Assembly: GCA_012797605.1 (NCBI GenBank)
Contig: JAAZOT010000015.1
Span: 45,569 to 109,568 of the forward strand
Origin: Spirochaetales bacterium
Lineage (GTDB): Bacteria; Spirochaetota; JAAYUW01
Direction: 5' to 3'
DNA length: 64,000 bases
In this document: positions 4,069 to 60,966 of the stretch, one piece after another
How the letters are laid out: each line of letters opens with the position of its first letter
Position numbering within the stretch: position 1 is the stretch's first letter
The notes under the pieces: generated by a model
What the model was told of the DNA's origin: nothing
What the model saw: only the letters and a program-made list of their open reading frames with translations
Database searches by the model: none
Position numbers and translations under genes: made by a program

Positions 4069-5346
4069 ATGATTGGATTAAGGAATTTTCTATTTTTAAA
4101 TTTAATTTTAAAAGAGCTTTATATGGGGAAAAATAAAAATCGTTATAAAGAAAAGATAATATTATCAATTTTATTTATCATATTGATTCTAATTCTTTTT
4201 AGTTTTAAATTTCAATTTGGATTTAAGAAAAATGATATCATTCAAATTTCAAGCTCATCTAGACAATATGTTTATTTTGAAGAAGAGCTTTACAGAACCT
4301 GGGATTATGAACATATTGATAAATTATATGTTACTGATGTTAATGGAAATAGGTTCAAAATTGAGGGTAAGTACCAATTTTTTGAAAAGGATCAATTTGG
4401 AAATAAAGTTCTCTCTGAAACACAAATGGTTAATTTTGAGCAAGATAATTTTGGTAGAATGTTTTTCAATTATCCTACTATTTATCCAACTTTAAGAAAT
4501 GTCCCAGTATTTTTAGATAAAGATATTGTTCCTTCCGAAAGATGGTGGGCTGAAGCTGAAGAAATAGTAGATTTTAGCTCTATTGGTATCCCAAATTTCT
4601 CGATAGCTGTTCCATTTAAGGTTTCATATCAATATTTAGGAGACGAAGGAAATTTAGCTATTATTAAAGCATATTATACAAATGTATATGGTTTTGAAAA
4701 AGATAATGTTTATAAGATGAATATTGAATATGCTCCAAAATTATACACTGCAAATGTTGAGATGATGCTTTATTGGGATAAACAGCTTGGTTATGTTGTA
4801 AAGTTTTCAGATATATATACCATTTATCTAGTGCTTATCAATGGGACAAGGTGGAAATTTACAGGCACAACCGATGGTTCAATGAATGTAATTCATAAAT
4901 GGGATGACCAGAAAAAAGATGATTTGATACAAAAAATAAATAAAGATTTACCAAAAGAACTTAAAGATAAAGTTGAAGTTAAAAAAACAGAAAAAGGTAT
5001 TTTACTAAATCTAGGGGAAATATTCTTTGATTTTAATAAGTATGATATTAAAAAATCAGAAGTAGAAAAACTAAAAATTATAGCTTCGATTTTGCAAAAG
5101 TATTTTTATGGTTATCAAGTAATCATCGAAGGATATACAGATAATGTCGGAAACGAGCAGTATAATCTTGAATTATCAACTAAAAGAGCTAAAACAATAT
5201 TTGATTTTTTAGTGAATATGAATGCAATAAATTCAGCAATTTCTTATTTTATTGGATATGGAGAATCAAATCCTATAGCACCGAATGATACTGAAGAAAA
5301 TAGAGCAAAAAACAGAAGGGTCCAAATACTTATCGTTGATTATTAA
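4069..5346 (+). CDS. OmpA/MotB C-terminal domain protein with unrecognised N-terminal domain
   Basis: 425 aa. N-terminal TM/signal anchor (IILSILFIILILILF). ~250-aa domain with no recognisable motif. C-terminal OmpA-like peptidoglycan-binding domain (FDFNKYDIKKSE...GYTDNVGNEQYNLELSTKRAKTIFDFL...NRRVQILIV). A downstream in-frame ATG at 4123 (MGKNKNRY) is an alternative start. Confidence 0.75.
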   Translation: MIGLRNFLFLNLILKELYMGKNKNRYKEKIILSILFIILILILFSFKFQFGFKKNDIIQISSSSRQYVYFEEELYRTWDYEHIDKLYVTDVNGNRFKIEGKYQFFEKDQFGNKVLSETQMVNFEQDNFGRMFFNYPTIYPTLRNVPVFLDKDIVPSERWWAEAEEIVDFSSIGIPNFSIAVPFKVSYQYLGDEGNLAIIKAYYTNVYGFEKDNVYKMNIEYAPKLYTANVEMMLYWDKQLGYVVKFSDIYTIYLVLINGTRWKFTGTTDGSMNVIHKWDDQKKDDLIQKINKDLPKELKDKVEVKKTEKGILLNLGEIFFDFNKYDIKKSEVEKLKIIASILQKYFYGYQVIIEGYTDNVGNEQYNLELSTKRAKTIFDFLVNMNAINSAISYFIGYGESNPIAPNDTEENRAKNRRVQILIVDY

Positions 5347-5355
5347 AATTAAGAT

Positions 5356-8319
5356 ATGTTGTCAGTTATCTTTTCATTGATTGAATTTGCCTATGCCATA
5401 GTTTTAATTGCAGTAATAATTAATCTTTATTCAAAATATCAATCTGATTTTAAAAGAAGAATATTTGCAGTAGTAGTTGGTATTGTTGTTCTCTATTATT
5501 TTATCTTTGCTTCAATTCAACTAATAAAAGATGAAATATTGACAAAAATCCTAAATAATATTTCTTTAATATCTTTAGTAATAGCTACTTCAATAAGTTT
5601 GTTTTATCTTTCGAGTTTTTTTTCAGAAAAATATTACAAATATCATAAAAAACTATGTTATATAATGCTATTTATTTCAATTATAACATCTATAATATTA
5701 ATTATTATTCAAGAGAATCCTATTTCAATTGAATATAATGGCTATTATTGGATATATATCTATAAAATTACAGAAACAGCTTATCTTTTGTTATTCTATT
5801 TTTTATCAATTTTTTGCATTATTCTAGTATTTTTCATTATTTTGATGATTAATAAAAGTTATAAAACAATAAAATTCTACTTCTATTATTCTTTTATTTT
5901 TATTTTACCATTTGTATATTTTATAAAATTTAAAAATCCTTTATTTATTGTTTTTATTCAAAATTCAATAATCATGATCTGGGTTTTATTAAATTTTACT
6001 GCTTTGAAGGATTTTCAAAAAGAGATTGTTAATTTTTTCAAGTTTCAAGTTGATTTTGCAGAGGAGTTAGATATTTTTCAGTTTTTACTCAATAGACATT
6101 TTAATATAACAGATACATCGAAAAAAACAATAAAAAAGCTTGGTTATGATGAAGAAGAAATTATTGGTCGAAGAATCGATTATATCCTTTTAAATTTTTT
6201 AGATGAAAAAATAAAATATGAAATTTCATCAAATGATGAAGTATATGGAATTTATAAGTTAAGGAAAAAGAATAATGAAGAAATTATTGTAGACTTGTTT
6301 CTAACTAAAATTAAAAATAATAATGGTGAAATAAAAGGTTATATTGTTCTATGTAGTGATATAGAATCTAGGCAAAAATTTGAAATTCAAAGTCAAAAAC
6401 ATACTTTAGCAAAAACTAAGTATAACGAATTTTTTGAGAACTTAAAAAGTCTTTTTGATATGATCGAAGACCCAGTATCTATATTAGATGAAAAAGGAAG
6501 ATTAATAACTGCGAATAAAAGTTTTATAGATATTTATAAAAAAGTAAAAGAAGAAATATTGATTCTAGATGATTTATTAAATTCGAAAGAGAAAAATATT
6601 GAAAAAATTATCAAATTTTCTGATGGTAATAAAAATTACTATTATAAATATTTTTTAAATTCTGTTTCTGAAAAAAAGGATATGCCAGTAGGTTATATAT
6701 GTGTACTTGAAAATTTCACAGATAAAATAAATATTCAGAAAAATCTTGAAAAGATTTTTGAAAATTTGAAATTTATTGTCTTAAATTTTCCATTTCCTTT
6801 AATTATTTTTGATGAGGAAGAGAATTTGCTTTTATATTCTAAGAAACTTTTAAGTTATATTTATAAAAAGGAAAAGATAGAAAAGATTGATATAACGAAA
6901 ATAAAAAGTGATTTTACACTAAATTCACTTTTTGATAAATTAAAAGATCAAGATTATTCCGAGTTAAATAATTACTATTTAGATCTATCAAAAATATTAA
7001 ATATAAAACACTCAAGGAAATTTCATTGCAATCTGTTTTTATTTAAACTAAGTAACGATTTCAATATTTATGGGCTTATTTTAGAAAATATTGAAAAAAA
7101 TCTAATGTATAAAAAAAGAATGCAAAAAATTAAAGATAGTATTGATAATGATATTAATGAAAAGACAAAATTCTTATATTCTCTCTCTTTTGAATTTAGA
7201 AAAAATATAGTAGATCTGATAGAAAAAATTAATGTCTTGATATTGTATGAGACAGAATCTTTAAGAGAATTTCTTTTAAAAATCAGAGAAAATTCTATTA
7301 CTTTACTTTCTCAAATAGATTCAATAATTCTTTATGAAATTTTACAAAAAGATACATATGAATATAATTATCAAAATATAGAAATTTTTAGCTTCTTAAA
7401 TAGTCTTATAAACAAGTATAAAAAGGAAATTCAAAGGGAAAACTTAAATTTCAATAGCTATTTAAACTTCGGTACTAATGATAGCGGAACTAATTTGGTA
7501 AAAAAATTAGTAAAAAAGGATAGTCAACTATATTTATACTTCGATCCTTCGCTATTAAAAATTGTTTTAGATAGTATAATTTCGAATTCAATAAAATTCA
7601 CCGAAAAAGGATCAATTGATTTCATAGCAAATCTAAGAAAATTAGGAGAAGAGAATTATGAACTTAATATCAAGATAAAAGATACTGGTATAGGAATAGA
7701 AAAGGGAAAATTAGGTTCGATTTTTGATAAATATTATCAAGTAGATAATGTTTTTATAAAAAGATATAGTGGTCTTGGATTGGGACTTTATAATGCAAAA
7801 AAAATTTGCGAATATTTAGGAGCAGAACTTACGATAGAATCAAACGAAGATAAAGGAACTTTGGTTTCTATAAATATACCCCTTATGAAATCGGAATTGG
7901 TTGTAAATAAAGAGATTAAAATGAAAGATAAGATAAAGAATCAAAATTTTAAATTTATTATTACATTTGAAGATGATAATGTTTTAGATTCCATTAAAAA
8001 TATTTGTAAAAAAAAGGAGTCTACATTTTTTATCTTAAATGATTTAAAAGATTTAGGAAAAATATTAGCAAGAAATATCGATTTTATTGTGTTAATTAAT
8101 TTAGATTTAATTGGTGATGCAGAACTTAAAACTTTAGAAAAGATAAAATATGAAAGACTTAATGAAAATATTCGACTTGTTTTTGTAGCTTTGTATTCCT
8201 ATCCATACAATGATAAAAAAATTAAGGAAATTAGTAGAGTAATTGATTTTGTCATTATTAGACCATTTGAGATAGAGGAATTTTTAAGTAAATTAGAAGA
8301 ATTTTATTTTACAATATGA
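5356..8319 (+). CDS. membrane PAS sensor histidine-kinase-like protein with intact HATPase domain, no phosphoacceptor His, and a C-terminal receiver-like domain
   Basis: 987 aa. N-terminal multi-TM region, then PAS-like repeats. The DHp segment FLYSLSFEFRKNIV aligns to the canonical SHELRTPL H-box with His replaced by Phe. N box (LDSIISNSIKFT), G1 (IKDTGIGI), F (IFDKYYQ) and G2 (SGLGLGL) are present. C-terminal receiver-like domain has IITFEDD, VLINLDLIGD and IIRP (Lys to Arg). 9-nt gap from the upstream OmpA-like gene. Confidence 0.8.
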   Translation: MLSVIFSLIEFAYAIVLIAVIINLYSKYQSDFKRRIFAVVVGIVVLYYFIFASIQLIKDEILTKILNNISLISLVIATSISLFYLSSFFSEKYYKYHKKLCYIMLFISIITSIILIIIQENPISIEYNGYYWIYIYKITETAYLLLFYFLSIFCIILVFFIILMINKSYKTIKFYFYYSFIFILPFVYFIKFKNPLFIVFIQNSIIMIWVLLNFTALKDFQKEIVNFFKFQVDFAEELDIFQFLLNRHFNITDTSKKTIKKLGYDEEEIIGRRIDYILLNFLDEKIKYEISSNDEVYGIYKLRKKNNEEIIVDLFLTKIKNNNGEIKGYIVLCSDIESRQKFEIQSQKHTLAKTKYNEFFENLKSLFDMIEDPVSILDEKGRLITANKSFIDIYKKVKEEILILDDLLNSKEKNIEKIIKFSDGNKNYYYKYFLNSVSEKKDMPVGYICVLENFTDKINIQKNLEKIFENLKFIVLNFPFPLIIFDEEENLLLYSKKLLSYIYKKEKIEKIDITKIKSDFTLNSLFDKLKDQDYSELNNYYLDLSKILNIKHSRKFHCNLFLFKLSNDFNIYGLILENIEKNLMYKKRMQKIKDSIDNDINEKTKFLYSLSFEFRKNIVDLIEKINVLILYETESLREFLLKIRENSITLLSQIDSIILYEILQKDTYEYNYQNIEIFSFLNSLINKYKKEIQRENLNFNSYLNFGTNDSGTNLVKKLVKKDSQLYLYFDPSLLKIVLDSIISNSIKFTEKGSIDFIANLRKLGEENYELNIKIKDTGIGIEKGKLGSIFDKYYQVDNVFIKRYSGLGLGLYNAKKICEYLGAELTIESNEDKGTLVSINIPLMKSELVVNKEIKMKDKIKNQNFKFIITFEDDNVLDSIKNICKKKESTFFILNDLKDLGKILARNIDFIVLINLDLIGDAELKTLEKIKYERLNENIRLVFVALYSYPYNDKKIKEISRVIDFVIIRPFEIEEFLSKLEEFYFTI

Positions 8320-10829
8320 TATATTTCTATAAAATTAGCATAATTTTACTGAATATTGCCTCATCTATAATTTCATTTGTGTATTTTTTCTATCTTTTAT
8401 TTTTACCAAACAATAAAAAATTATTTAAAATAGTTTCCATTTTATTTTTAGTTATTGGTTTAGGCTCAATAGCCAACATATATTATTTTATTGATATTGA
8501 AAATGAGATTTTAAAGAAAATTATCTTTTTTTGCATAATTTTGCTTTCCTTTTTACTCAATTATTTCATTTTATATGTTAATTTTAAGGATAAGAAAAAA
8601 TCTTTTATATTTTTTATCTTTATTTTATTCTATTCGTTAATATTGACAATTAGTCTTTTTATTAATTTTAAACTTTTTTTAATTTTTATATCGATATTAA
8701 ATTTTTTGGTATTTCTTCATATTGTTATAATAAATATTACTAGAAGGGGCAATATTGTTTTTTATATTTTTTCTTCAAGTTTTTTAATTTCATTGATAAT
8801 TTCAACATTAATATTTTTCTTCGAGAGATATTTCATATTTAAAAATAATATTTATTTGAATCTTTTTGAAATTATAAAGATTTTATATATTAACTTATTT
8901 AAATATTTCACATTTTTCTTAGGTATTTTATTTTTACTTCAAATCAGAAAATTTTTACTTTTTGATTATATCGGTGGAGTTTGGCAAAATTACATAATAA
9001 ATAAAGTAGACATACCTTATGTTTTTATCGATTCAAATGATAATATTATATATGCAAATGAATCTTTTCTTAAAATATGGCAGGGTGATTTGGGAAATAT
9101 CAAAAATATTAACATGAATAATATATTAAATTTTGAAAAAGGTATATTGAGTTGTTTTACCAATGAAAAGATACCTATTGCTTATGAAATATATCCATTA
9201 AAAACAAAAAATAGTATCAAAAAAATAGTCTTAGTTAAATCTTTAATTGAAGATATTAGTATCGAAGAAGAAAGAGAAAAAGAAGAAGATTATAGAATTA
9301 AATATGAAAAAATAAAAATTCTTTTTCATAATTTGCTTGAATATTTCCCTAAGGCTATTTTGATAGTAAATGAAAAAGGTATCATTGAGTATTCAAATTA
9401 TCAATTTGCTTCGATCTTTAAAATTAATAAAGATTCAATAGTTGGGGAATCTATTTTACAAATATTTTTACAGTTAGGCTTTTTGAAAAATTTTGATGAA
9501 AAAGATATTGAGGAATCTATAGAGTTTGTCAAAAAGTTGGAAAATAAAAATTTGGAAATTAAGGATAATTTTTTTAATATTCAAATTAAAGAAATAGAAG
9601 GGATCTTTGAAGAAGATATTGAAAAGACTATTAAATATTTAATTACCATAAATGATTATTCAGTTATTCAAAAAAATAAAATCGCTCTTGAAAAATATAT
9701 TAACACTTTAGATATTTTTATTAATAAAAATATACTTCCAATTTGCCTTACAGATTCGGATGGTTTTATAAGTTTGGTAAATCAGAAATTCACTCAGTAC
9801 TTTGATTTTCAGTCTAAAATTAACATATTTACTTTATCTAAAAATATTGAAAAAATTATCAAAAAAAATTATAAAAAAATATTAAATAATGAAATATTAT
9901 TTTTAGGAGATTATATTGTTTTTGGGGAAAAAATAGAAAATATAACCGAAATATACTCAAAAGAAATTTTTTTATCAAAAGATTTTTTAGATAAAATAAT
10001 TGAAAAAGAATCAACTAATTTAAAATATAAGATTTTTTCAATACACTGTTTTGCTTTGTTTCAAAATTTGAATTATTCATTGTTTCAAAAAAATCCTTAT
10101 CAATTTGCCTTTTTATTTATCGATGTGACAAATGATATATTAAGTAAAAGAGAATTGATTACAAACTTAAAGAATTCAAAGAGCACATTAAAAAAGATGG
10201 ATTTACTTATAAATAATATAAATCATGAGATGCGAACTCCGTTAAATATTATTTCTGGATTTGTTGAATTATTGAAGATAGAAAAACATGATGATCAAAT
10301 TTCAAGAAAGATTATGGGAATTGATAAAAGCGTAGAAAAAATAAAAAAAATAATAGAGGAGATCATATCATCAAGTTCATTTGCTGATAAAGAAAAAGAA
10401 TTAATAGAAATCAACTTAAAACCTTTTATTGAAGATTATAAAAGCTATATGTATAATTCATTTAAAATGACTATTAAAAGTAATGTATTACAAATGAACC
10501 AGCTTAATATTAAGATAAATTTAAGATTATTTAAAAAGCTAATGACTTTTATAATAGATAATTACAAAAATTACGATTTTATAGAATTAAATATAAACAT
10601 CATAAACAAACCTATTTTATCAGCTTTGAATGAAAAATTCTTGGTTATTTCTTTAAATGTTATTGATGAAAAATTACCTAATCAAAAAGAAATAATCTTA
10701 CCCTCAAATGAATTTGATTTTATCAAAATTGTTCTGAATTTTTTAGTATTTTTACTCAAAGGAGAGATAAAATTCAAATCAGATTCTCAATATAACTTCT
10801 TAATAAAAATACCTGTGAAAATTATATAA
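8316..10829 (+). CDS. membrane PAS sensor protein with canonical HisKA H-box but degenerate ATP-binding domain
   Basis: 837 aa. ATG overlaps the upstream stop (ATGA at 8316..8319), so the two are translationally coupled. Multi-TM N-terminus and PAS-like repeats. H-box INHEMRTPLNIISGFVELL. About 113 aa downstream there is an N-box-like FIIDNYKNY, but the G1 position reads VIDEKLP (no DxGxG) and there is no GxGLG G2 box. Confidence 0.8.
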   Translation: MIYFYKISIILLNIASSIISFVYFFYLLFLPNNKKLFKIVSILFLVIGLGSIANIYYFIDIENEILKKIIFFCIILLSFLLNYFILYVNFKDKKKSFIFFIFILFYSLILTISLFINFKLFLIFISILNFLVFLHIVIINITRRGNIVFYIFSSSFLISLIISTLIFFFERYFIFKNNIYLNLFEIIKILYINLFKYFTFFLGILFLLQIRKFLLFDYIGGVWQNYIINKVDIPYVFIDSNDNIIYANESFLKIWQGDLGNIKNINMNNILNFEKGILSCFTNEKIPIAYEIYPLKTKNSIKKIVLVKSLIEDISIEEEREKEEDYRIKYEKIKILFHNLLEYFPKAILIVNEKGIIEYSNYQFASIFKINKDSIVGESILQIFLQLGFLKNFDEKDIEESIEFVKKLENKNLEIKDNFFNIQIKEIEGIFEEDIEKTIKYLITINDYSVIQKNKIALEKYINTLDIFINKNILPICLTDSDGFISLVNQKFTQYFDFQSKINIFTLSKNIEKIIKKNYKKILNNEILFLGDYIVFGEKIENITEIYSKEIFLSKDFLDKIIEKESTNLKYKIFSIHCFALFQNLNYSLFQKNPYQFAFLFIDVTNDILSKRELITNLKNSKSTLKKMDLLINNINHEMRTPLNIISGFVELLKIEKHDDQISRKIMGIDKSVEKIKKIIEEIISSSSFADKEKELIEINLKPFIEDYKSYMYNSFKMTIKSNVLQMNQLNIKINLRLFKKLMTFIIDNYKNYDFIELNINIINKPILSALNEKFLVISLNVIDEKLPNQKEIILPSNEFDFIKIVLNFLVFLLKGEIKFKSDSQYNFLIKIPVKII

Positions 10830-10948: not shown

Positions 10949-11140
10949 TTAAATAGTTTGATTGACATTATTTGCCACACCGCTATCATTAAGCATTTTG
11001 ACATAATCTTGTTTAGAATTATTTTGATCTTCAATATTTTTTGGAGATTCAACAGCTTCCTTATTTTTTTCTTGTTCGATTTTTTGATTTGTCACCTGCT
11101 GAGTTTGGATAGCGTAATTATTAACCTTTTTTAAATCCAT
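10949..11140 (-). CDS. small hypothetical protein (63 aa)
   Basis: The only ORF in a 440-bp intergenic gap. Hydrophilic Gln/Asn-rich product with no recognisable motif. Could be spurious. Confidence 0.3.
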   Translation of the reverse strand: MDLKKVNNYAIQTQQVTNQKIEQEKNKEAVESPKNIEDQNNSKQDYVKMLNDSGVANNVNQTI

Positions 11141-13588: not shown

Positions 13589-16500
13589 ATGCAGATTAAA
13601 AATTACACAATTTTAAATACAAAACTGGCTAAAGATCAGTTTCTTTGGCATGAAGGTTATTTAGAGAAAAAAAATAAAGTAAATATTTTTGAATTTTATA
13701 TTGATAAGTTAAAGATTGATAACCCAAATGATGTCATATATAAGATCTTGATACCAGCAGATATTGGTAATCCTATAGAAATTATATCATGTTTCATAGG
13801 TTTTAATGGTAATCTATTTATTGTTCTACCATTGGAGTTCGAAAAGCTATCGCAAATAAGAGGTATCTATCTAGATTACGATATTGAAAATTTAAATTTG
13901 TTTTTAAAAAAGGAAGCAAGCCCTAAATTACTATTAATTAATGGTAAAAATCTCTCGGGTAAAAGTTACTTTGCAAATATATTAAATATATTTTTTGTAA
14001 TAAAAAGTTTTGAAACTTTATTTTTTACGGCGATTTTCAAGTTGGTTCAAGATGTAGAGATTGTAAATAGCATGAGAGAATCTTTTGTTCAAAGTGAAGA
14101 AGAAGAAGAAGAACAGATAAAAAAAATTCAATTTGGCTATTTCCCAGAGAAATATCAAAAGTCTTTCGCTAGTAAAATACTTTCAATTGCTTCTAAAAAA
14201 CCAGTAACAATTTTTTTTGATAATATTGATCTACTTTCTAAAAATGTCCAGACCCTAATCTTAGGAATTTATAAAACGATACAACTAAACCCAGGAAGAT
14301 TTCCAATCGTTTTTTGTTTAATATCCACAAATGGGATATCTCATCTTTTAATGTCTGAGGAATTCTCTAGAAATAGTTTCATTAGAAAAATGCTGGATGT
14401 ATCATTTTTAGAACTTAAAAAGTTAATAAATTTTCTACCTATAATAAAAAATAATAGTAATAATCCAAACCAAAATGATTTACTTCATCATTTATATAAA
14501 ATAACTGAAGGGCATTTACCAAAAATTCAATTCGTTTTATCAAGAATCGCTTTTGGACAAATAGCATGGGATGAATCTTTTTTAAGCCAATCACTTAATA
14601 AAATATATTCAGAAGAGATTTCTAGATTAAATGAGCTTGATCTTACTATACTTTCTATCTTCAAGACATTTAAAATCCCACTTTCTTTTTTAACATTCAA
14701 ATATATTGCACCAATATGCATTGATAAGAAGTACGATTATGATGATATTTATGATTCAATTATTAAATTAAAAAATCTTTTCTTAGTTTCTACTACTCTT
14801 TCAAATAAAACTATACATATGTTTTTAAGTTATAAAGAGATGCTAACTTATATACCAGATTATCCAGAACCTAATAAAATTTATGAAGCTTGTGGAGATT
14901 ATTATAAATCTATCGAAGAAAATATCGAATTAATTCTATATTGTTATATTAACTCAAAAAATATAAATAAAACAATAGAATCATTGAATAGTTTTATTGA
15001 TTATTATAAAAAAGTCTTTGATTTTGAACCTATACTTTTCTATATAGACAAAGTATTACAGACATTTACATTATCCTCCCAATTAAGATTTGATCTTTTA
15101 TATGAGAAAGCAGAAATTTTTTCCCATCTTTCTTTATGGTTTGAATCACTTACAATGTTATATGAACTTCTTCCTTATTCAAAAAGAATAGAAGATATAT
15201 ACTATTATATTTGCTATAACTACTTTTATCTTGGAGAGTATGACGCTCTTGAAGAATTTATTCAAGCTTATCAGCAAACAATCTATTCTAATCCTATGTT
15301 AAAAATAAAGATCGGATTTATACAAGCTCCGATTTTTTGTATAAAAAATGAAAAAGAAAAAGCCATTAACCTTATTAATGAATTATATGAATTAATTTCA
15401 AATGAAAAAGATAATACTGTCTTATTTAAAGATTTCTATATTTGTGCTGCAAATTGTTACTATCTGATTAATGATGTTGCGAAAGCGAAGGAGATGATTA
15501 ATAAGGTAGAATTAAAAAAAGATGATTTTCAATCCATTCCATATTTTATGGAAATATACCTCCTTCAAGCTAAGTTTGCCCTCTATGAAAAACAATACAA
15601 TCTAAGTTTGTCCTGGACTAATAAAGGGATAAATTTATGCGAAAATTATTATAACTTAAGATATCTTTCAGATTTTTATACTATAACTGCTCTAAACTTA
15701 TATTATCTTAAAAATTACAATTCAACATTATCTTATTTAAAGAAGGCTTCGAAATTGAAAGAAGAACTAAATCATAGATTTGATTTAGGTATAATAAGAT
15801 ATTATGAAGCTTTAACTTTGTTTAAATTAGGAAACTTCTCTCAAGCCATAGCAAAAACATATAAAGCAGCACATATCTTTAAGATACTAGACGCTAAACA
15901 ATACTACAAAGATACACAAATACTTTTAATTAAAGCAGAATTTGAACTAAGGAATTATGAAAGAGCCTTTTATTTACTACGCTCTCTATCAAAAGATTAT
16001 GAATTTACTAAAGAAGAGAAAGAAGAACTCTTATTTTATATGACCAAAATACAGGAAATAATTCTTTCTATGAACAATACTATCTCTATAATATTAGATA
16101 CTAAAGATTTTTCGAAAATACCTAGTTATTTTAATACAATGAGAAATAGTAGAGTTTCATTTGACGATATCTCGTTAAAACTTGTTTATTCTCTTCAACA
16201 TATAGTTGATCAGAACCCTCATTTTGAAAAAGTATACGAAGAAATTTTAGTATATCTTACAAATTATACTAACGCAGATGTATCCTATTTAGTTTTATCT
16301 TATCCGAATAATGAATTTAAGATTGTTTCAAAATATTCTCCAGTAAACCTGACTTCATCCACAAATAAAGAAATAATTTTCGAGTTATTAAAATTAAAAA
16401 TTCTCTATGAAGAAAAAGTAACAACTTTATCATATGATAATGAAAATATAGTATGTATACCTTTATATAGGGTTTCAAGATTACCATCTACAAGAGCAAA

Positions 16501-17128
16501 AAAACTAACATCAAGAATAAGGAAAAATTATCTTGGTTTTATAATTTTATTTTTCACAACAGAACCTAAAAAAGAGATAATATTTTCAATTTCAAATTCA
16601 TATAATGTAATTAATTCAATAATAATTAATTCACTAGAATATAGTAACTTATCTAAAGAAGATGATCATACTTATCGATTCAGAGTATTTAAGGAAATTG
16701 TTATAAGAGAAGCTTTTAATTGTTGTCAGGAAGGTCATAATTTTGGTTTTTGTTATCTTAAGATAAATTTGCCTAAGGAACTATACCAAAATGAAAAAAT
16801 CAAAATACTGTTAAATGAATTCATAATAAATTTACATCATCTATTACGAAGTGAAGATTTAATGACCCATATTTCAGATTATGAATATTTTATCTTTTTA
16901 CCATTTGCTGAAAAACATGGAGAAGGATCATTAAAGGGAAAAGTTTCAAGTTCATTTGTTAATTTTTACAACAAAACTTCAAAAAAAGAAATATTTGAAA
17001 AAGTCGAACTTTATCTTTCTTTTTCCTTTTTAAGTCCATGTGAAAAGAATATAATGATAGATGTTGATAGTATTATAAATGAATTAAAAGAAAAAGTGGT
17101 TAAAATTCCGCTGAACCTGGAACCCTAA
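13589..17128 (+). CDS. large multidomain signalling protein: P-loop NTPase + TPR-like repeats + GAF-like + degenerate GGDEF domain
   Basis: 1179 aa. Walker A ([13 protein letters not shown]) and Walker B-like (VTIFFDNID). Long helical TPR-like region. GAF-like segment ([23 protein letters not shown]...[10 protein letters not shown]). The C-terminus follows the GGDEF fold pattern ([14 protein letters not shown]...[21 protein letters not shown]), with the RxGGDEF signature replaced by SDYEYF. Confidence 0.8.
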
Positions 17129-18559: not shown

Positions 18560-19417
18560 TCAAGTAAAGTTATAGTGATGCCATTGATTAGCAAATCCTA
18601 AAAAATTATGATCTTTGATATCTTGATTTTCAAAATTGTCCTGATAATGCATTAAAAATATTTTTTCCTTGATGTAGGTCGGATAAGAGCAAATCTCATC
18701 GAAACTTGCATGGACCCCACCTTTATAGGATTGGCAATCATGAAAGATATATTCGATATCAAAAAAACTTACTAGAAATTCAATAAAATCTTTATCAAAT
18801 TTTGTATCTGAGGTAAAAAGGATTTTATTGTCTATTATTAGACCAAATGTCAAATGATGTTTTTCTAAATCATTGACATCTGATGGAAGATGTTTTGTTT
18901 GGAAAAATATTATATTAATTTGGTCTATTTTTACCTGATAAAAGAGTCTTTTTTCATTATAATTTATAGAAATCGGTTCTGGTTTTATATAATTAACAAA
19001 ATCAAAAATCGAAAGATGATTTGATCCTTTATATTCAGAGTAACTGCAACCACCTTTTAAGCTTTCTTCCCATAAAATTTTTAGGTATGGTTCTGGCACT
19101 ATTAAATTTACCTTTCTATTAAAACCATATCTATTAAATAAAAAAATCTCTTCTACCCCACCAATATGATCAGCATGAGAATGAGTTAAAATAAGATTAG
19201 TGATAGAAGATACATTATGCCCAAGTTCATTTAAAGCAAATGGTGCTCTTGTTCCAAAATCAACAAAAATTGAAGTATCACCTTTGATAATAATTATATT
19301 ATTCTGATAAATTTTTTTTGAAAAAGCAGAACCTACCCCTAAAAAAAATATAGATAAGAAACCATCATTTTTCAATATTAAAGGGGGTTCTATTTTAGAT
19401 ATGGATAAATTTAACAT
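18560..19417 (-). CDS. MBL-fold metallo-hydrolase
   Basis: 285 aa. LILTHSHADHIGG matches the HxHxDH metallo-beta-lactamase motif. Confidence 0.7.
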   Translation of the reverse strand: MLNLSISKIEPPLILKNDGFLSIFFLGVGSAFSKKIYQNNIIIIKGDTSIFVDFGTRAPFALNELGHNVSSITNLILTHSHADHIGGVEEIFLFNRYGFNRKVNLIVPEPYLKILWEESLKGGCSYSEYKGSNHLSIFDFVNYIKPEPISINYNEKRLFYQVKIDQINIIFFQTKHLPSDVNDLEKHHLTFGLIIDNKILFTSDTKFDKDFIEFLVSFFDIEYIFHDCQSYKGGVHASFDEICSYPTYIKEKIFLMHYQDNFENQDIKDHNFLGFANQWHHYNFT

Positions 19418-27006: not shown

Positions 27007-27351
27007 ATGGACTTTAGAAGTGATATTGAGTTTTTCAACAATATCGATGTTGCAATAACTATATGCGACAAAGATTTCACAATTATCTATATGAATGAAA
27101 AAGCAACAAAAACTTTTGAACAGTATGGATTTCTTATAGGTAAAAATCTTTTAGATTGTCATAATAGCAATTCTAGAGAAATTTTGCAAAAAATGATGAA
27201 AAATGGAGAAAAAAATACATATACAATATTAAAAAATGGGATAAAAAAGCTAATTCATCAAACTCCATGGTATAAAGATGGTAAGATAGCCGGATTAGTA
27301 GAATTTTCTATTGAAATCCCTCAGGATATGAAACATTTTAACAGAAATTGA
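27007..27351 (+). CDS. stand-alone PAS domain protein
   Basis: 114 aa. PAS-like pattern (VAITICDKDFTIIYMNEKATKTF...GKNLLDCH...WYKDGKIAGLVEF). Confidence 0.6.
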   Translation: MDFRSDIEFFNNIDVAITICDKDFTIIYMNEKATKTFEQYGFLIGKNLLDCHNSNSREILQKMMKNGEKNTYTILKNGIKKLIHQTPWYKDGKIAGLVEFSIEIPQDMKHFNRN

Positions 27352-27456
27352 ACTAAATAAACAATAATTATAATTAATAAACTCAAAAAATAGTTAATTT
27401 AATTGTCCTTTTCAATTTATGAGCTATAATATTATAGGAAAAGTAAAGGAGTAATA

Positions 27457-28830
27457 ATGAATTTAAAAGCAAAGTATATTCTATCTTTTCTTATCATCTA
27501 TCTTGTCGCTGCAGTAAGTTTGACTTTGTATATTTCAAATAAAAGTCAAAATATGTTGGTTGATCAAGCTAATGCAAGTTTTGAAGAATTTTTGCTTGTA
27601 GTTGGTAGGAGTATAGCTTCTCCATTGACAACTTTCAGACTTGCTAAAATTGATGAAATGACCATAAATGATGTAAGAAGAGAAATATTTGAAGTAAAAA
27701 GAAATGAAGGTAAATTTCATGATTTAGAAGATATTGTCATATTTGATAAAGATGGAGTGTTATCCTTTCCTCAAAATATATCTGATGTAAATCAAAAATT
27801 TCCTTTTGAAATTTTAGAGAATAATACTCTTTCACACAAAATTGTTAGTTATTTTAATGATAAAAGTAATTTTTACTCCCAAAAATATAAGAAAGGAATC
27901 AATAATCTCGGTATTCTAATTTATAGAGTTCCTTTTCAGTGGTCGGGTGGTATTCAGTATCCAGGATATGTCGCTACAGTCATATCTTATGATAGATTTT
28001 ACAAAGAACAAAGCAAATTGAGGATGCAATCATTTATTGTAAATTTATTATTTTTAACTTTAGCTTTGGTGCTCATTTGGGGTATAACTTTGCTTCTTAC
28101 AAAAAGAATTTATATCATTGTTGGTGCTGTAAAAAACCTATCTGCGGGTCAATTCACTAAAGTTCCTCCGAGTGGTAAAGATGAACTTGAATCTTTAATG
28201 AAAGAATTCAATAACATGCTTGACGCTATAAAAGAAAGGCAGCTTTTAGGTTCATATGTATCTCAAAGTACGATAGAAATGGTTAAAAAATCGGCTCAAT
28301 TTTCCGAAAGTATAGAACCAAGTTATCAGGAATATACAGTATTTTTTTCAGACATAAGAGGTTTTACATCTTATTCAGAGTCCCATGACCCAAAGGAGGT
28401 AATGGATCTGTTAAATACCTTACTTGATTTTCAAGTTAACATCATAAAAAAATATGGTGGAGATATAGATAAATTTATAGGTGACTCAGTAATGGCATTA
28501 TTCAAGGGAGAAAATAAAGAATTAAATGCATTAAAAGCATCTTATGAAATTCAAAAGAAATGGATTACTGATAAAGTTTATATTGGCATAGGAATAGCTA
28601 CTGGTAAAGTAATAGTTGGAAATATTGGAAGTTCTGAAAGAAAGGAAGCTGCAACTATAGGAGATATAGTCAATACTGCATCGAGATTGTGCAGTCATGC
28701 AAAACCAAAAGAGTTGGTAATATGTGAAATGACTTACAAGTCTTCTAAAATCAGTGGTTTTGATGGACCAGAAATGATATCTGTTAAAGGGAAAAGCCAA
28801 CCTTTCCCAGTATATAAAAAGAAATTTTAA
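27457..28830 (+). CDS. class III adenylate/guanylate cyclase with extracytoplasmic sensor domain and HAMP domain
   Basis: 457 aa. RBS AAAGGAG upstream. TM, a ~150-aa periplasmic domain, a second TM, a HAMP-like segment, then the cyclase catalytic domain (FFSDIRGFTSYSE, DKFIGDSVMALF, IGIATGKVIVGNIGS, TIGDIVNTASRL). Confidence 0.85.
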   Translation: MNLKAKYILSFLIIYLVAAVSLTLYISNKSQNMLVDQANASFEEFLLVVGRSIASPLTTFRLAKIDEMTINDVRREIFEVKRNEGKFHDLEDIVIFDKDGVLSFPQNISDVNQKFPFEILENNTLSHKIVSYFNDKSNFYSQKYKKGINNLGILIYRVPFQWSGGIQYPGYVATVISYDRFYKEQSKLRMQSFIVNLLFLTLALVLIWGITLLLTKRIYIIVGAVKNLSAGQFTKVPPSGKDELESLMKEFNNMLDAIKERQLLGSYVSQSTIEMVKKSAQFSESIEPSYQEYTVFFSDIRGFTSYSESHDPKEVMDLLNTLLDFQVNIIKKYGGDIDKFIGDSVMALFKGENKELNALKASYEIQKKWITDKVYIGIGIATGKVIVGNIGSSERKEAATIGDIVNTASRLCSHAKPKELVICEMTYKSSKISGFDGPEMISVKGKSQPFPVYKKKF

Positions 28831-58446: not shown

Positions 58447-60966
58447 TTAAATAAACAGATTCAATGAACTTGTTGATGCTGCTTCCATGTATGTTGCAAC
58501 ACCACCGATTTTTACATTATCAAGTAGTTCTTCTTTCTTTACGCCCATTATATCCATAGACATTTGACATGCTACAAAGTTTATGCCTGCATCTATAGCT
58601 TGCTGAATCATCTTATCAAGTTGATCAACATTTTTTTGTTTCATTCTTAGTTTCATCATCAAAGGTCCAATATTTAACATATTTAATTTCGATAGGCTTA
58701 ACTTTCCAGAATGTTTCGGAAGCATTAAAGAAAACATCTTACCCATAAAATCTTTTTTAACTTTTGCTTTTTTTCTTCTTTTAATAACCGATAAACCCCA
58801 GAATGTGAAAAACATCGTAACCTTTCTTCCAGTACTTGCTGCACCTAAAGCTAAAACAAATGATGCCAGTGCTTTATCCATATCATCGGAAAAAACAATT
58901 ATTGTCGAATCATTTAAGTTACTTATTGTATCTTTTTTCATTATAGATTGCCCAATAGATGGATTTTCATTAATGGATCCTTTTTGAATCTTTGCTGTTA
59001 TTATGCCAGAATTTTCATTTAATGATATTAAAGTATTCTTAGTAAGATTTACCCATGCTGAAACATCTTTTTTAAAACCAGGATCTGTAGCCTTTACTTC
59101 GACTACTTGTCCAGAATTTAAACTATCAAAAGTTGTTTTTAGTTTAAGTATTGGACCTGGGCATTGAAGACCACATGCATCTATCGCTATGACTTCTGAA
59201 ATATTGCCTCTTTCAGCACCTTTAACAGGCTGATTTTGTCCCATTGGGTTTGCTTGATAAATTATATCGTCTTTACCAATATAATCTTTCTCAAATATAT
59301 CTTCATTCGATTGTTTTTGAGTGACATGTTCATATGTCTTATAACCACCAGAAAGGTTATAAATGTTTTCAAAGCCATTTTGAGCAAGTATTCGATATGC
59401 AACATAACCTCTTAGTCCAACACCACAAAAGACTATGATCTTTTTGTCCTTAGGTATTTTATTTACATTAATTCTAAGTTCATCAACAGGGATATTTACA
59501 GATCCAGGTATCGTTCCAAGTAAGAATTCCTCATTTGTTCTAACATCTAGTAAAAATATAGAGTTTTTGTCCATGGAAATTAAGTCATCCCAATGTATTT
59601 GATTTAATTTTTTATTTAAGATATTTTCTGCTACAAAGCCAGCGATATTAATGGGGTCTTTTGCAGATGAAAATGGTGGAGCGTAAGCATGTTCAAAATT
59701 TAGCATGTCTTCAATTGTTCCACCTTTTTGAATTAAGGCTGCGATAACATCTATTCTCTTATCTACTCCTTCATAACCTACTATCTGGCTACCGAGTATT
59801 TTTTTATTATCAAGATCGAATAGTACTTTTAATGTAAGAGGTAATGCACCTGGGTAATATCCAGCATGAGAAGAAGCATGAATTATAACTTTATCATAGT
59901 TAATTTTATATTGTTTTATGGTTTTCTCTGATAGTCCAGTTGATGCTACTGTCAAATCAAATACTTTCGCTATGGCTGTTCCTATCGAACCAAGATATTT
60001 TCTTTTTGGTCCATATACAATATTATCTGCAACAATCCTCCCTTGTTTGTTTGCTGGTCCAGCAAGAGGAACATTTATATTTTCATTTAAAAGAAGATGC
60101 TTCCCTTCTATGGCATCGCCAATTGCATAAATATCTGGATCACTTGTCTGCAAATATTCATTAACTAAAATACCACCTCGGTTACCAATCTTTAAGTTTG
60201 CTTGTTTTGCAAGATTAGATTCTGGTCTTACTCCGATAGATAAAATTACCATGTCACAGTAGATTTTTTTACCACTTTTTAAGTTAACACCAATTTTTTC
60301 TTCTTTAGTATCAAAGCTTGCAACGGAATCATTCAAGTAAAATTCAACCCCTTTTGTCTTTAAGTGTTGATGAATTTCAGAGGCAATTTCAAAATCAACT
60401 TGAGGCATGACCTGTGGAGCCATCTCTACAAGTGTTACAAGTAACCCAAGATTATAAAGGTTTTCTGCCGTTTCAAGACCAATAAAACCAGCTCCAACTA
60501 TTACTGCTTTCCTAACATTTCTTTCTTTAATAAAATTTTTGATATTTAATGTATCCTTTGGATTTCTTAATGTAAATATTCTTTTATCGTCAATTCCAGG
60601 AAGAGGGGGTTTAAAAGGTTCTGCTCCAGGAGAAAGCACAAGTTTATCGTAAGAAATTTTTCCAATTTCAGATGTCACTAAATTTTTATAATGAACTTCC
60701 TTTTTAGCTGGATCTATTTTAATTACCTCATGATTTACCCTGACATCGACATTGAACCTTGCATTGAAGGATTGAGGGGTTTGAACAAACAAATTGTCCC
60801 ATTCTTTAATAGTTTCTCCGATGTAATATGGTAAGCCACAATTTGCATAAGAGATATATTCACCTCTTTCAAAGAGTATTATTTCAGATTTTTCATCAAT
60901 TCTTCTAAGTCTTGCTGCAGTAGTAGCACCACCAGCAACACCACCAACTATGATGTATCTAGCCAT
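58447..60966 (-). CDS. CoA-disulfide reductase / NAD(P)H oxidase fused to rhodanese, TusA-like and DsrE/DsrF-like domains
   Basis: 839 aa. AAGGAG RBS. FAD site GGVAGGATTAARL with redox Cys in SYANCGLPY. Second dinucleotide site VIVGAGFIGLE. Rhodanese with active-site Cys (IVFCGVGLRG). TusA-like CPGP motif (ACGLQCPGPIL). C-terminal DsrE/DsrF-like domain (LASFVLALGAASTGRKVTMFFTFWG). Confidence 0.85.
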   Translation of the reverse strand: MARYIIVGGVAGGATTAARLRRIDEKSEIILFERGEYISYANCGLPYYIGETIKEWDNLFVQTPQSFNARFNVDVRVNHEVIKIDPAKKEVHYKNLVTSEIGKISYDKLVLSPGAEPFKPPLPGIDDKRIFTLRNPKDTLNIKNFIKERNVRKAVIVGAGFIGLETAENLYNLGLLVTLVEMAPQVMPQVDFEIASEIHQHLKTKGVEFYLNDSVASFDTKEEKIGVNLKSGKKIYCDMVILSIGVRPESNLAKQANLKIGNRGGILVNEYLQTSDPDIYAIGDAIEGKHLLLNENINVPLAGPANKQGRIVADNIVYGPKRKYLGSIGTAIAKVFDLTVASTGLSEKTIKQYKINYDKVIIHASSHAGYYPGALPLTLKVLFDLDNKKILGSQIVGYEGVDKRIDVIAALIQKGGTIEDMLNFEHAYAPPFSSAKDPINIAGFVAENILNKKLNQIHWDDLISMDKNSIFLLDVRTNEEFLLGTIPGSVNIPVDELRINVNKIPKDKKIIVFCGVGLRGYVAYRILAQNGFENIYNLSGGYKTYEHVTQKQSNEDIFEKDYIGKDDIIYQANPMGQNQPVKGAERGNISEVIAIDACGLQCPGPILKLKTTFDSLNSGQVVEVKATDPGFKKDVSAWVNLTKNTLISLNENSGIITAKIQKGSINENPSIGQSIMKKDTISNLNDSTIIVFSDDMDKALASFVLALGAASTGRKVTMFFTFWGLSVIKRRKKAKVKKDFMGKMFSLMLPKHSGKLSLSKLNMLNIGPLMMKLRMKQKNVDQLDKMIQQAIDAGINFVACQMSMDIMGVKKEELLDNVKIGGVATYMEAASTSSLNLFI

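Follow-up and report, generated by a model that had tools for sequence, protein, structure and literature searches.

Split and heteromeric histidine kinases are an established concept (PMC3591291, PMC12675982). In Rhodobacter sphaeroides, CheA4 phosphorylates CheA3 (PMC3591291, PMC6829392), and in group A Streptococcus FasB and FasC heterodimerise; the FasC kinase domain can be dispensed with, that of FasB has been proposed to phosphorylate FasC-H246 in trans, and FasC has been proposed to be a pseudokinase (PMC12675982). Separated HisKA and HATPase polypeptides of EnvZ keep activity in trans, as cited in PMC3591291. Here we describe two adjacent genes, A and B, in a 64-kb stretch of DNA from a Spirochaetales bacterium (contig JAAZOT010000015.1; hereafter the window). 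Gene A (5356..8319, + strand) encodes a membrane-bound PAS sensor of 987 amino acids (aa) with a His-less dimerisation and histidine-phosphotransfer (DHp) hairpin, an intact catalytic and ATP-binding (CA) domain and a receiver-like tail, and gene B (8316..10829, +) encodes a second membrane-bound PAS sensor, of 837 aa, in which a canonical H-box precedes a pseudo-catalytic tail. From these sequences and those of their orthologues, we lean towards reading A and B as one split (complementary) histidine kinase, in which the ATPase of A would phosphorylate His637 of B and the phosphoryl group would then pass to an unlinked regulator.

The pair resembles CheA3/CheA4 in that ATP binding and the phosphoacceptor lie on two polypeptides, neither of them a complete kinase, and in that the His partner is linked to phosphatase activity. 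CheA3 and CheA4 are, however, of the CheA class (Hpt-type P1, P3-P5) without sensor domains of their own, whereas A and B are of the HisKA class with membrane and PAS sensors; Pfam gives PAS, HisKA and HATPase_c only in A and B, and none of the CheA set (Hpt P1, P3 dimerisation, P4, CheW-like P5). In addition, the missing domains are absent from the CheA pair, whereas A and B keep degenerate but conserved pseudo-domains. FasB/FasC are comparable in their adjacent sensor-kinase-like genes, their heterodimer and their model of trans-phosphorylation, a likeness drawn from description. There, mutagenesis revealed the division of labour, which is not evident from reciprocal motif loss, and the cognate regulator FasA lies in the Fas locus, whereas the A-B window encodes none. 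Engineered EnvZ subunits, one lacking the His and the other ATP binding, reportedly restore trans phosphorylation together; A and B likewise pair these two defects, but as a natural, conserved pair of distinct genes with different sensor modules and not as engineered mutants of one homodimeric kinase.

Phosphate reaches Spo0B and ChpT, which are both small and soluble, from receiver domains, and each consists of a DHp-type His hairpin and a CA-like domain without ATP binding. Compared by description, this is also the order modelled for residues 611-837 of B, but B has 837 aa, membrane and PAS sensor regions and a canonical H-box of the HisKA type. DivL and other His-less HisKA proteins (PMC4211667, PMC12632262, PMC11481889) share with A a replaced DHp His (Tyr in DivL; F, L or Y in A) and a multi-PAS N-terminus; DivL functions without need of kinase chemistry, whereas A keeps all ATP boxes and has a His-only neighbour. 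In the GacS/RetS/LadS network (PMC12189002, PMC5992135), sensor kinases heteromerise via their DHp domains and pass or siphon phosphoryl groups, but they also form homodimers, are not reciprocally defective and are not encoded by adjacent genes. ShkA and CikA (PMC12632262) resemble A in a DHp-CA module followed by a kinase-regulating receiver fold without catalytic residues, but retain a phosphoacceptor His themselves. HATPase_c is missing from about 3.7% of HisKA proteins, and 1.7% also carry the phosphatase motif (PMC3591291). In the searchable literature, we met no description of neighbouring full-length sensors conserved as a reciprocally degenerate pair with both pseudo-domains kept, FasBC being the nearest. 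A preliminary description of the window had called obligate complementary pairs uncommon; the A-B arrangement is indeed rare, but it has precedents in the split and heteromeric kinases already described.

Catalytic equipment of A and B

The preliminary description had read the two kinase cores as reciprocally defective and had proposed a profile search as a check. In Pfam, A gave HATPase_c (E 6.8e-18) and PAS, with neither HisKA nor Response_reg at E<=1, and B gave HisKA (E 1.2e-10) and PAS without HATPase_c, in agreement with that reading. To place the phosphoacceptor column of A, we used our own profile hidden Markov model (HMM) of the DHp-CA-receiver regions of 48 canonical hybrid kinases taken from a homology search. 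It spans residues 586-983 of A end to end (E 1e-50) and sets SHEIRTP over SFEFRKN, so that Phe612 (LSFEFRK; codon 7189..7191) occupies the His column. The hairpin of A (residues 586-665, 7111..7350), a HisKA-derived, DHp-like structure without the phosphoacceptor His, was aligned by hhalign to canonical DHp with 96.7% probability in the same register (SFEFRK on SHEIRTP), and was modelled by AlphaFold2 (AF2) as two long helices. The predicted replacement of the His by Phe was thus upheld by two alignments. Across five A sequences this column reads F/F/F/L/Y, the orthologues at 98, 73, 52 and 40% identity (P0001-P0004) having F, F, L and Y, and a conserved His column was found nowhere in these five. 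Glu613 and Arg615, close to Phe612, are invariant, and the T/N of the phosphatase motif is Lys.

By contrast with its missing His, A has a canonical CA/HATPase_c domain (residues 666-845, 7351..7890; Pfam, hhalign probability 100% to canonical CA, AF2 predicted local distance difference test (pLDDT) >90). The N box (N744, 7585..7587), the G1 box (D776-I781, 7681..7698), the F box (near 7723) and the G2 box (G806-L811, 7771..7788) are all present, as the preliminary description had listed them, and are invariant in the five A sequences; N744, D776/G778/G780 and G806/G808/G810 are also common to 33 canonical kinases. The AF2 model of residues 580-987 (pLDDT 84) contains the helical hairpin, a CA domain with a lid of normal length (~33 residues) and a (beta-alpha)5 domain, and Foldseek matches it best to full-length ShkA. 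The CA domain of A is closest to HisKA-type hybrid kinases across the entire DHp-CA-REC span. A therefore has the DHp homology and the HATPase_c boxes of the HisKA class but not its phosphoacceptor His, and it falls outside the hybrid histidine kinases, which have H1 and D1 on one polypeptide, since A has no H1 site and part of the family has a degenerate D1 pocket. The invariance of the ATP boxes points to selection for ATP use in a protein unable to phosphorylate itself on His.

Protein B carries the opposite set. Its HisKA DHp (residues 611-692, 10146..10391; Pfam, HMM, and hhalign at 99%) has the H-box INHEMRTPLN within a canonical stretch, INHEMRTPLNIISGF, and the textbook H-box attributed to B (INHEMRTPL) is therefore real. 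His637 (codon 10224..10226) is the sole His conserved in all B orthologues. The E/DxxT/N phosphatase motif, a mark of bifunctional kinases (PMC3591291), is kept as HEMRT in the window, HEIRT in two orthologues and HEIRS in the orthologue at 39% identity, giving a HE..T/S motif conserved among orthologues. B thus has a HisKA domain with its phosphoacceptor His but no HATPase_c with ATP-binding boxes.

The last 145 residues of B (693-837, 10392..10826) form a clade-specific domain modelled as a CA (Bergerat) fold without the N, G1 and G2 residues. HATPase_c was detected there neither by Pfam nor by our own profile or hhalign, and an exhaustive phmmer search over 1.84 billion representatives returned four proteins, all of them orthologues, and no relative outside the clade. 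Sequence evidence that the tail is a degenerate HATPase_c was sought and not obtained with Pfam, NCBIfam beyond the N-box region, our own HMM, hhalign or phmmer. The best AF2 model of residues 600-837 (pLDDT 65, predicted template modelling score (pTM) 0.62), built on a shallow alignment, arranges its strands and helices as in a kinase catalytic domain, with an ATP-lid loop of ~14 residues, against ~33 in A; the other four models had pLDDT 41-46. Remote fold matches of the tail include the mitochondrial BCK kinase, and DivL and RetS are among the structural matches. Gly was found at none of the G1/G2 equivalents in five lineages, which bears out the preliminary description on the loss of both boxes; the N-box-like FIIDNYKNY that it named is a positional analogy only, its Asn being variable (N/N/K/S) and the tail not being HATPase_c by sequence. 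The tail is nevertheless conserved at or above the average of B (72/43% vs 69/39%) and includes the invariant pattern HLVFLL.G.I.F.S.S..NF.IKIP, and on its modelled fold it is best described as a conserved pseudo-catalytic domain. Strain variants of B (P0065-P0072) have 840 residues instead of 837, with a three-residue SAW insertion in a loop of this domain.

The C-terminus of A (residues 861-987, 7936..8316) is a domain of receiver fold with a degenerate active site, as judged by HMM, AF2 and Foldseek. It aligns to hybrid-kinase receivers with our own HMM, and AF2 models it as five (beta-alpha) units, (beta-alpha)5, at pLDDT 80-90. When the five catalytic receiver positions were mapped onto the AF2 model of A, the acidic pair was ED/DD in the window, P0001 and P0002, NN in P0003 (52%) and KE in P0004 (40%). 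The Asp after strand 3 is present in the window, P0001, P0002 and P0003 and is N in P0004, with a D one residue later (column D/D/D/D/N); the T/S site, which follows an invariant Tyr, is S in the window and in P0001-P0004; and the Lys position is R in the window, P0001, P0002 and P0004, and K in P0003. The reported change of Lys to Arg in the K-P motif (Arg969, IIRPF) hence recurs in four of five A sequences. This is also the least conserved domain of A (56/33/25% identity vs 73/52/40% for the whole protein). A pseudo-receiver is defined as a receiver fold without at least one of DD, D, T/S and K (PMC12632262), and the modelled domain of A is a pseudo-receiver under that definition. The preliminary description had suggested onward relay from B to this domain. 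Because two of four lineages have lost the acidic pair, the Asp column varies and no domain of A is less conserved, such a transfer is unlikely as a family trait and the suggestion is poorly supported; it may occur in the lineage of the window itself, but it would not be conserved across the family.

Both proteins share a layout of a multi-pass membrane region (the first ~215-225 residues, with at least six hydrophobic segments in a Kyte-Doolittle scan) followed by PAS domains. In A, the membrane region (residues 1-225, 5356..6030, ~6 hydrophobic segments) is conserved above the protein average, and the PAS region (226-585, 6031..7110) comprises Pfam PAS matches at 238-340 and 362-408 and then a third PAS-sized stretch. 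In B, the corresponding regions are residues 1-215 (8316..8960) and 216-610 (8961..10145; Pfam). Public NCBI/JGI records of B (P0073-P0075, 657/660 aa) begin at an internal TTG (Leu181) and so lack the overlap with A as well as the greater part of the membrane region (8316..8858). The long form is supported by the conservation of its N-terminus in orthologues and by a 180-codon open frame in DNA of ~20% GC.

Conservation and origin of the pair

Genes A and B overlap by ATGA at 8316..8319 (junction ...ACA ATA TGA / ATG ATA...), which combines the stop codon of A with the start codon of B; open reading frames (ORFs) and junction sequence agree with the overlapping arrangement of two membrane-anchored multi-PAS sensors first described. 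A survey of related genomes, also proposed at the outset, placed a B orthologue directly 3' of A in every lineage with data (four), with spacings of a 4-bp overlap, 21 bp, 3 bp and 2 bp, and a fifth lineage is represented by a contig-end fragment with the tail of B and the same downstream genes. B orthologues were found in L001, L002, L004, L015 and L017, and near-identical B copies in public records carry the labels 'Exilispira sp.' (a genus within the Spirochaetota) or 'Spirochaetales bacterium'. In every lineage, A has the ATP-binding residues without a conserved His, and B has His637 without the ATP-binding residues. Against the 73% lineage (L001), the ratio of nonsynonymous to synonymous substitution rates (dN/dS) is 0.21 for A and 0.22 for B, with 0.18-0.38 at other distances; given these values of ~0.2, A and B are under purifying selection. 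Recurrence in every lineage, adjacency and purifying selection together strengthen the reading of a reciprocal defect.

Sequencing error or a pseudogene was rejected as an explanation, the features recurring across independent assemblies as well as among the orthologues of 73%, 52% and 40% identity. Chance or error is unlikely because of this recurrence, and a change from Phe to His would need two base changes.

Genome-contig and metagenome-contig scans and protein searches did not find the pair beyond Exilispira-like spirochaetes. More distant matches (L007, L008) are ordinary kinases with an intact His (SHE[IL][KR]TP), and no intermediate form giving the order of the losses was met in the genome and metagenome scans. 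An unrelated HisKA-only protein, P0077, has no His-less kinase neighbour. As regards an origin by tandem duplication, BLASTP between A and B gave nothing significant and their DHp regions have no specific mutual similarity, while hhalign gave a weak co-linear membrane/PAS match of 78% probability, in a compositionally biased proteome. The metagenome-assembled genomes L005 and L006 (GCA_964581895.1, CAYVTU01), which hold the 73% and 40% orthologues, are titled 'uncultured Brachyspira sp.' and show extended synteny with the Exilispira-labelled window; their genus label may be imprecise.

How the pair may work

If A and B form a split kinase, both would sit in the membrane, each with its own membrane and PAS sensing module. 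A would supply the sole functional ATP-binding catalytic domain and B the sole phosphorylatable His, His637, on the bifunctional-type H-box HEMRT. In a hetero-oligomer, the CA domain of A would move the gamma-phosphate of ATP to His637. The most economical geometry would be a heterodimer of two DHp hairpins; alternatively, A could dock on B via its receiver-like domain, and a dimer of dimers is a further possibility. Phosphorylated B would give its phosphoryl group to a response regulator encoded elsewhere in the genome, and unphosphorylated or uncomplexed B may dephosphorylate that regulator. Output would need both sensors, which would allow coincidence or ratio detection, with the C-terminal pseudo-receiver of A acting as a regulatory or docking module and not as a phosphoacceptor. 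The comparison itself establishes the anatomy of the domains, which catalytic residues each protein has lost or kept, and that these are conserved in adjacent genes under purifying selection; that A and B join in a complex, that one phosphorylates the other, that a partner acts downstream and what the pseudo-receiver does are what we infer from it.

A more specific form of this proposal is an obligate heterodimeric kinase, in which the two different DHp hairpins would build one four-helix bundle and the two membrane/PAS modules would gate one event, from the CA domain of A to His637 of B; this we advance tentatively, as somewhat short of an even chance. Equally tentative is its corollary that reciprocal degeneration produced a hard-wired two-input coincidence detector, with the pseudo-CA domain of B and the pseudo-receiver of A kept as structural or regulatory parts.

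The lineage-wide joint retention of exactly complementary catalytic equipment in tightly coupled genes makes a two-protein kinase the simplest account, and the precedents of CheA4/CheA3, FasB/FasC and EnvZ make its chemistry plausible. At the level of sequence, the pair has two of the features that describe split kinases in PMC3591291, namely ATP-binding and phosphoacceptor functions on two proteins and, for the bifunctional kind, a phosphatase motif on the His partner; a further one, a complex in which one protein phosphorylates the other while neither does so to itself alone, is what our reading would predict.

Several points weigh against a split kinase. The window contains no receiver ORF besides A, as searched with our own HMM with filters off and with Pfam on all ORFs of at least 110 aa, and the earlier statement that no DNA-binding response regulator is nearby thus extends to all 64 kb. 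The DHp regions of A and B have no specific mutual similarity by hhalign, and the lineages are too few for co-variation. The pseudo-CA fold of B comes from the single model at pLDDT 65 and is of modest confidence. An interaction between A and B is deduced from adjacency and coupling; adjacency may reflect co-regulation only, and either protein could have its partners at other loci. A simple heterodimer would not complement were the DHp geometry cis-autophosphorylating.

As the main alternative, B could be a sensor-linked histidine phosphotransferase of the Spo0B/ChpT type and/or a dedicated phosphatase that exchanges phosphoryl groups with the receivers of other proteins. A would then be a pseudokinase like DivL, with ATP binding and a receiver-like domain that serve regulation, and it may bind B but would not phosphorylate it. 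We consider this unlikely, though worth keeping in view. The layout of B, a DHp His followed by a CA-like domain without ATP residues, fits Spo0B and ChpT as known, the modelled fold lending modest support, but these two are small and soluble, whereas B has membrane and PAS modules. Retention of the E/DxxT/N motif in B is in its favour, as are the precedent of His-less HisKA proteins such as DivL, which work without kinase chemistry (PMC4211667), the presence of DivL and RetS among the structural matches noted above, and the fact that ~0.9% of HisKA domains lack the His (PMC12632262). It leaves unexplained, however, why A, having lost its His and phosphatase motif, has ATP boxes that do not vary even among orthologues of as little as 40% identity, and no intact kinase or receiver able to feed B is encoded nearby.

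The intact ATP-binding domain of A would also suit an active protein kinase or ATPase of the GHKL type whose substrate is not a His (for example Ser, Thr or Tyr on A, B or another protein), like the anti-sigma-factor kinases or PDK/BCK, in which case the His of B would be irrelevant to A. The Tyr in the His column of one orthologue, as in DivL, and the remote match of the B tail to the BCK kinase agree with this. The column is, however, F, L or Y, which provides no conserved phosphoacceptor there, the CA domain of A is most like those of HisKA-type hybrid kinases over DHp-CA-REC, and the conservation of the H-box next door is left unexplained; we find this account improbable. Although each protein misses a hallmark residue set and the receiver-like domain of A evolves fastest, a decaying remnant of two former kinases without joint catalytic function is very improbable indeed, given full-length open frames in a ~20% GC genome where stop codons arise easily, dN/dS of ~0.2-0.3 at all distances, invariant complementary catalytic residues, a pseudo-CA domain of B conserved above the protein average, and an architecture kept in at least four lineages.

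Genomic setting and meaning

An OmpA-family gene (4069..5346, +, 425 aa, OmpA domain C-terminal) stops 9 bp short of A, and every lineage has it in synteny with the pair. It possibly forms one operon with A and B and is co-transcribed with them, and it may be functionally tied to the pair, for example in envelope sensing. In this AT-rich DNA (window G+C 19-33%), a scan for promoters and terminators was uninformative, with 69 sites against 71 expected and 0 terminators. The conserved gene order runs UPF0102, a 40-aa ORF, the OmpA-family gene, A, B, a convergent 63-aa ORF, a PNPOx-like gene, a UPF0020 methyltransferase and a 1179-aa protein. The 63-aa ORF (10949..11140, -), convergent and just 3' of B, has no Pfam match; its length and sequence are kept (82% identity in the 73% lineage, 55% in the 40% lineage), with an invariant C-terminus GVANNVNQT. 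The 1179-aa protein (13589..17128, +) has no significant Pfam domain and a weak ARM/TPR-like match only, and keeps its length and its place downstream of the pair in all lineages with contigs long enough.

Elsewhere in the window, a further signalling module (27007..28830, +) consists of a stand-alone 114-aa PAS protein and, after it, a class III adenylate/guanylate cyclase with a HAMP domain. A metallo-beta-lactamase-fold protein (18560..19417, -) matches the Pfam family named after the phage anti-Pycsar nuclease Apyc1 (2.9e-36) and adjoins a MazG-type pyrophosphohydrolase. An 839-aa fusion (58447..60966, -) joins a pyridine-nucleotide disulphide oxidoreductase to rhodanese, TusA and DsrE-like domains, which suggests sulfur trafficking.

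Histidine kinases are nearly always treated as self-phosphorylating homodimers, and the classic evidence for phosphorylation in trans comes from mixing engineered His-minus and ATP-minus subunits. The A-B locus looks like a natural, evolutionarily fixed version of this mixed-subunit experiment, with each half on a different sensor. For annotation, 'incomplete' kinases, either HisKA proteins without HATPase_c or His-less ones, deserve a check for a complementary neighbour before they are dismissed as inactive. If the split-kinase reading is true, the pair would offer a clean model for obligate heteromeric two-component signalling and the integration of two signals, a system in which to test the switch-like behaviour that PMC3591291 predicts for bifunctional split kinases, and a case study of the retention of pseudo-domains after subfunctionalisation.

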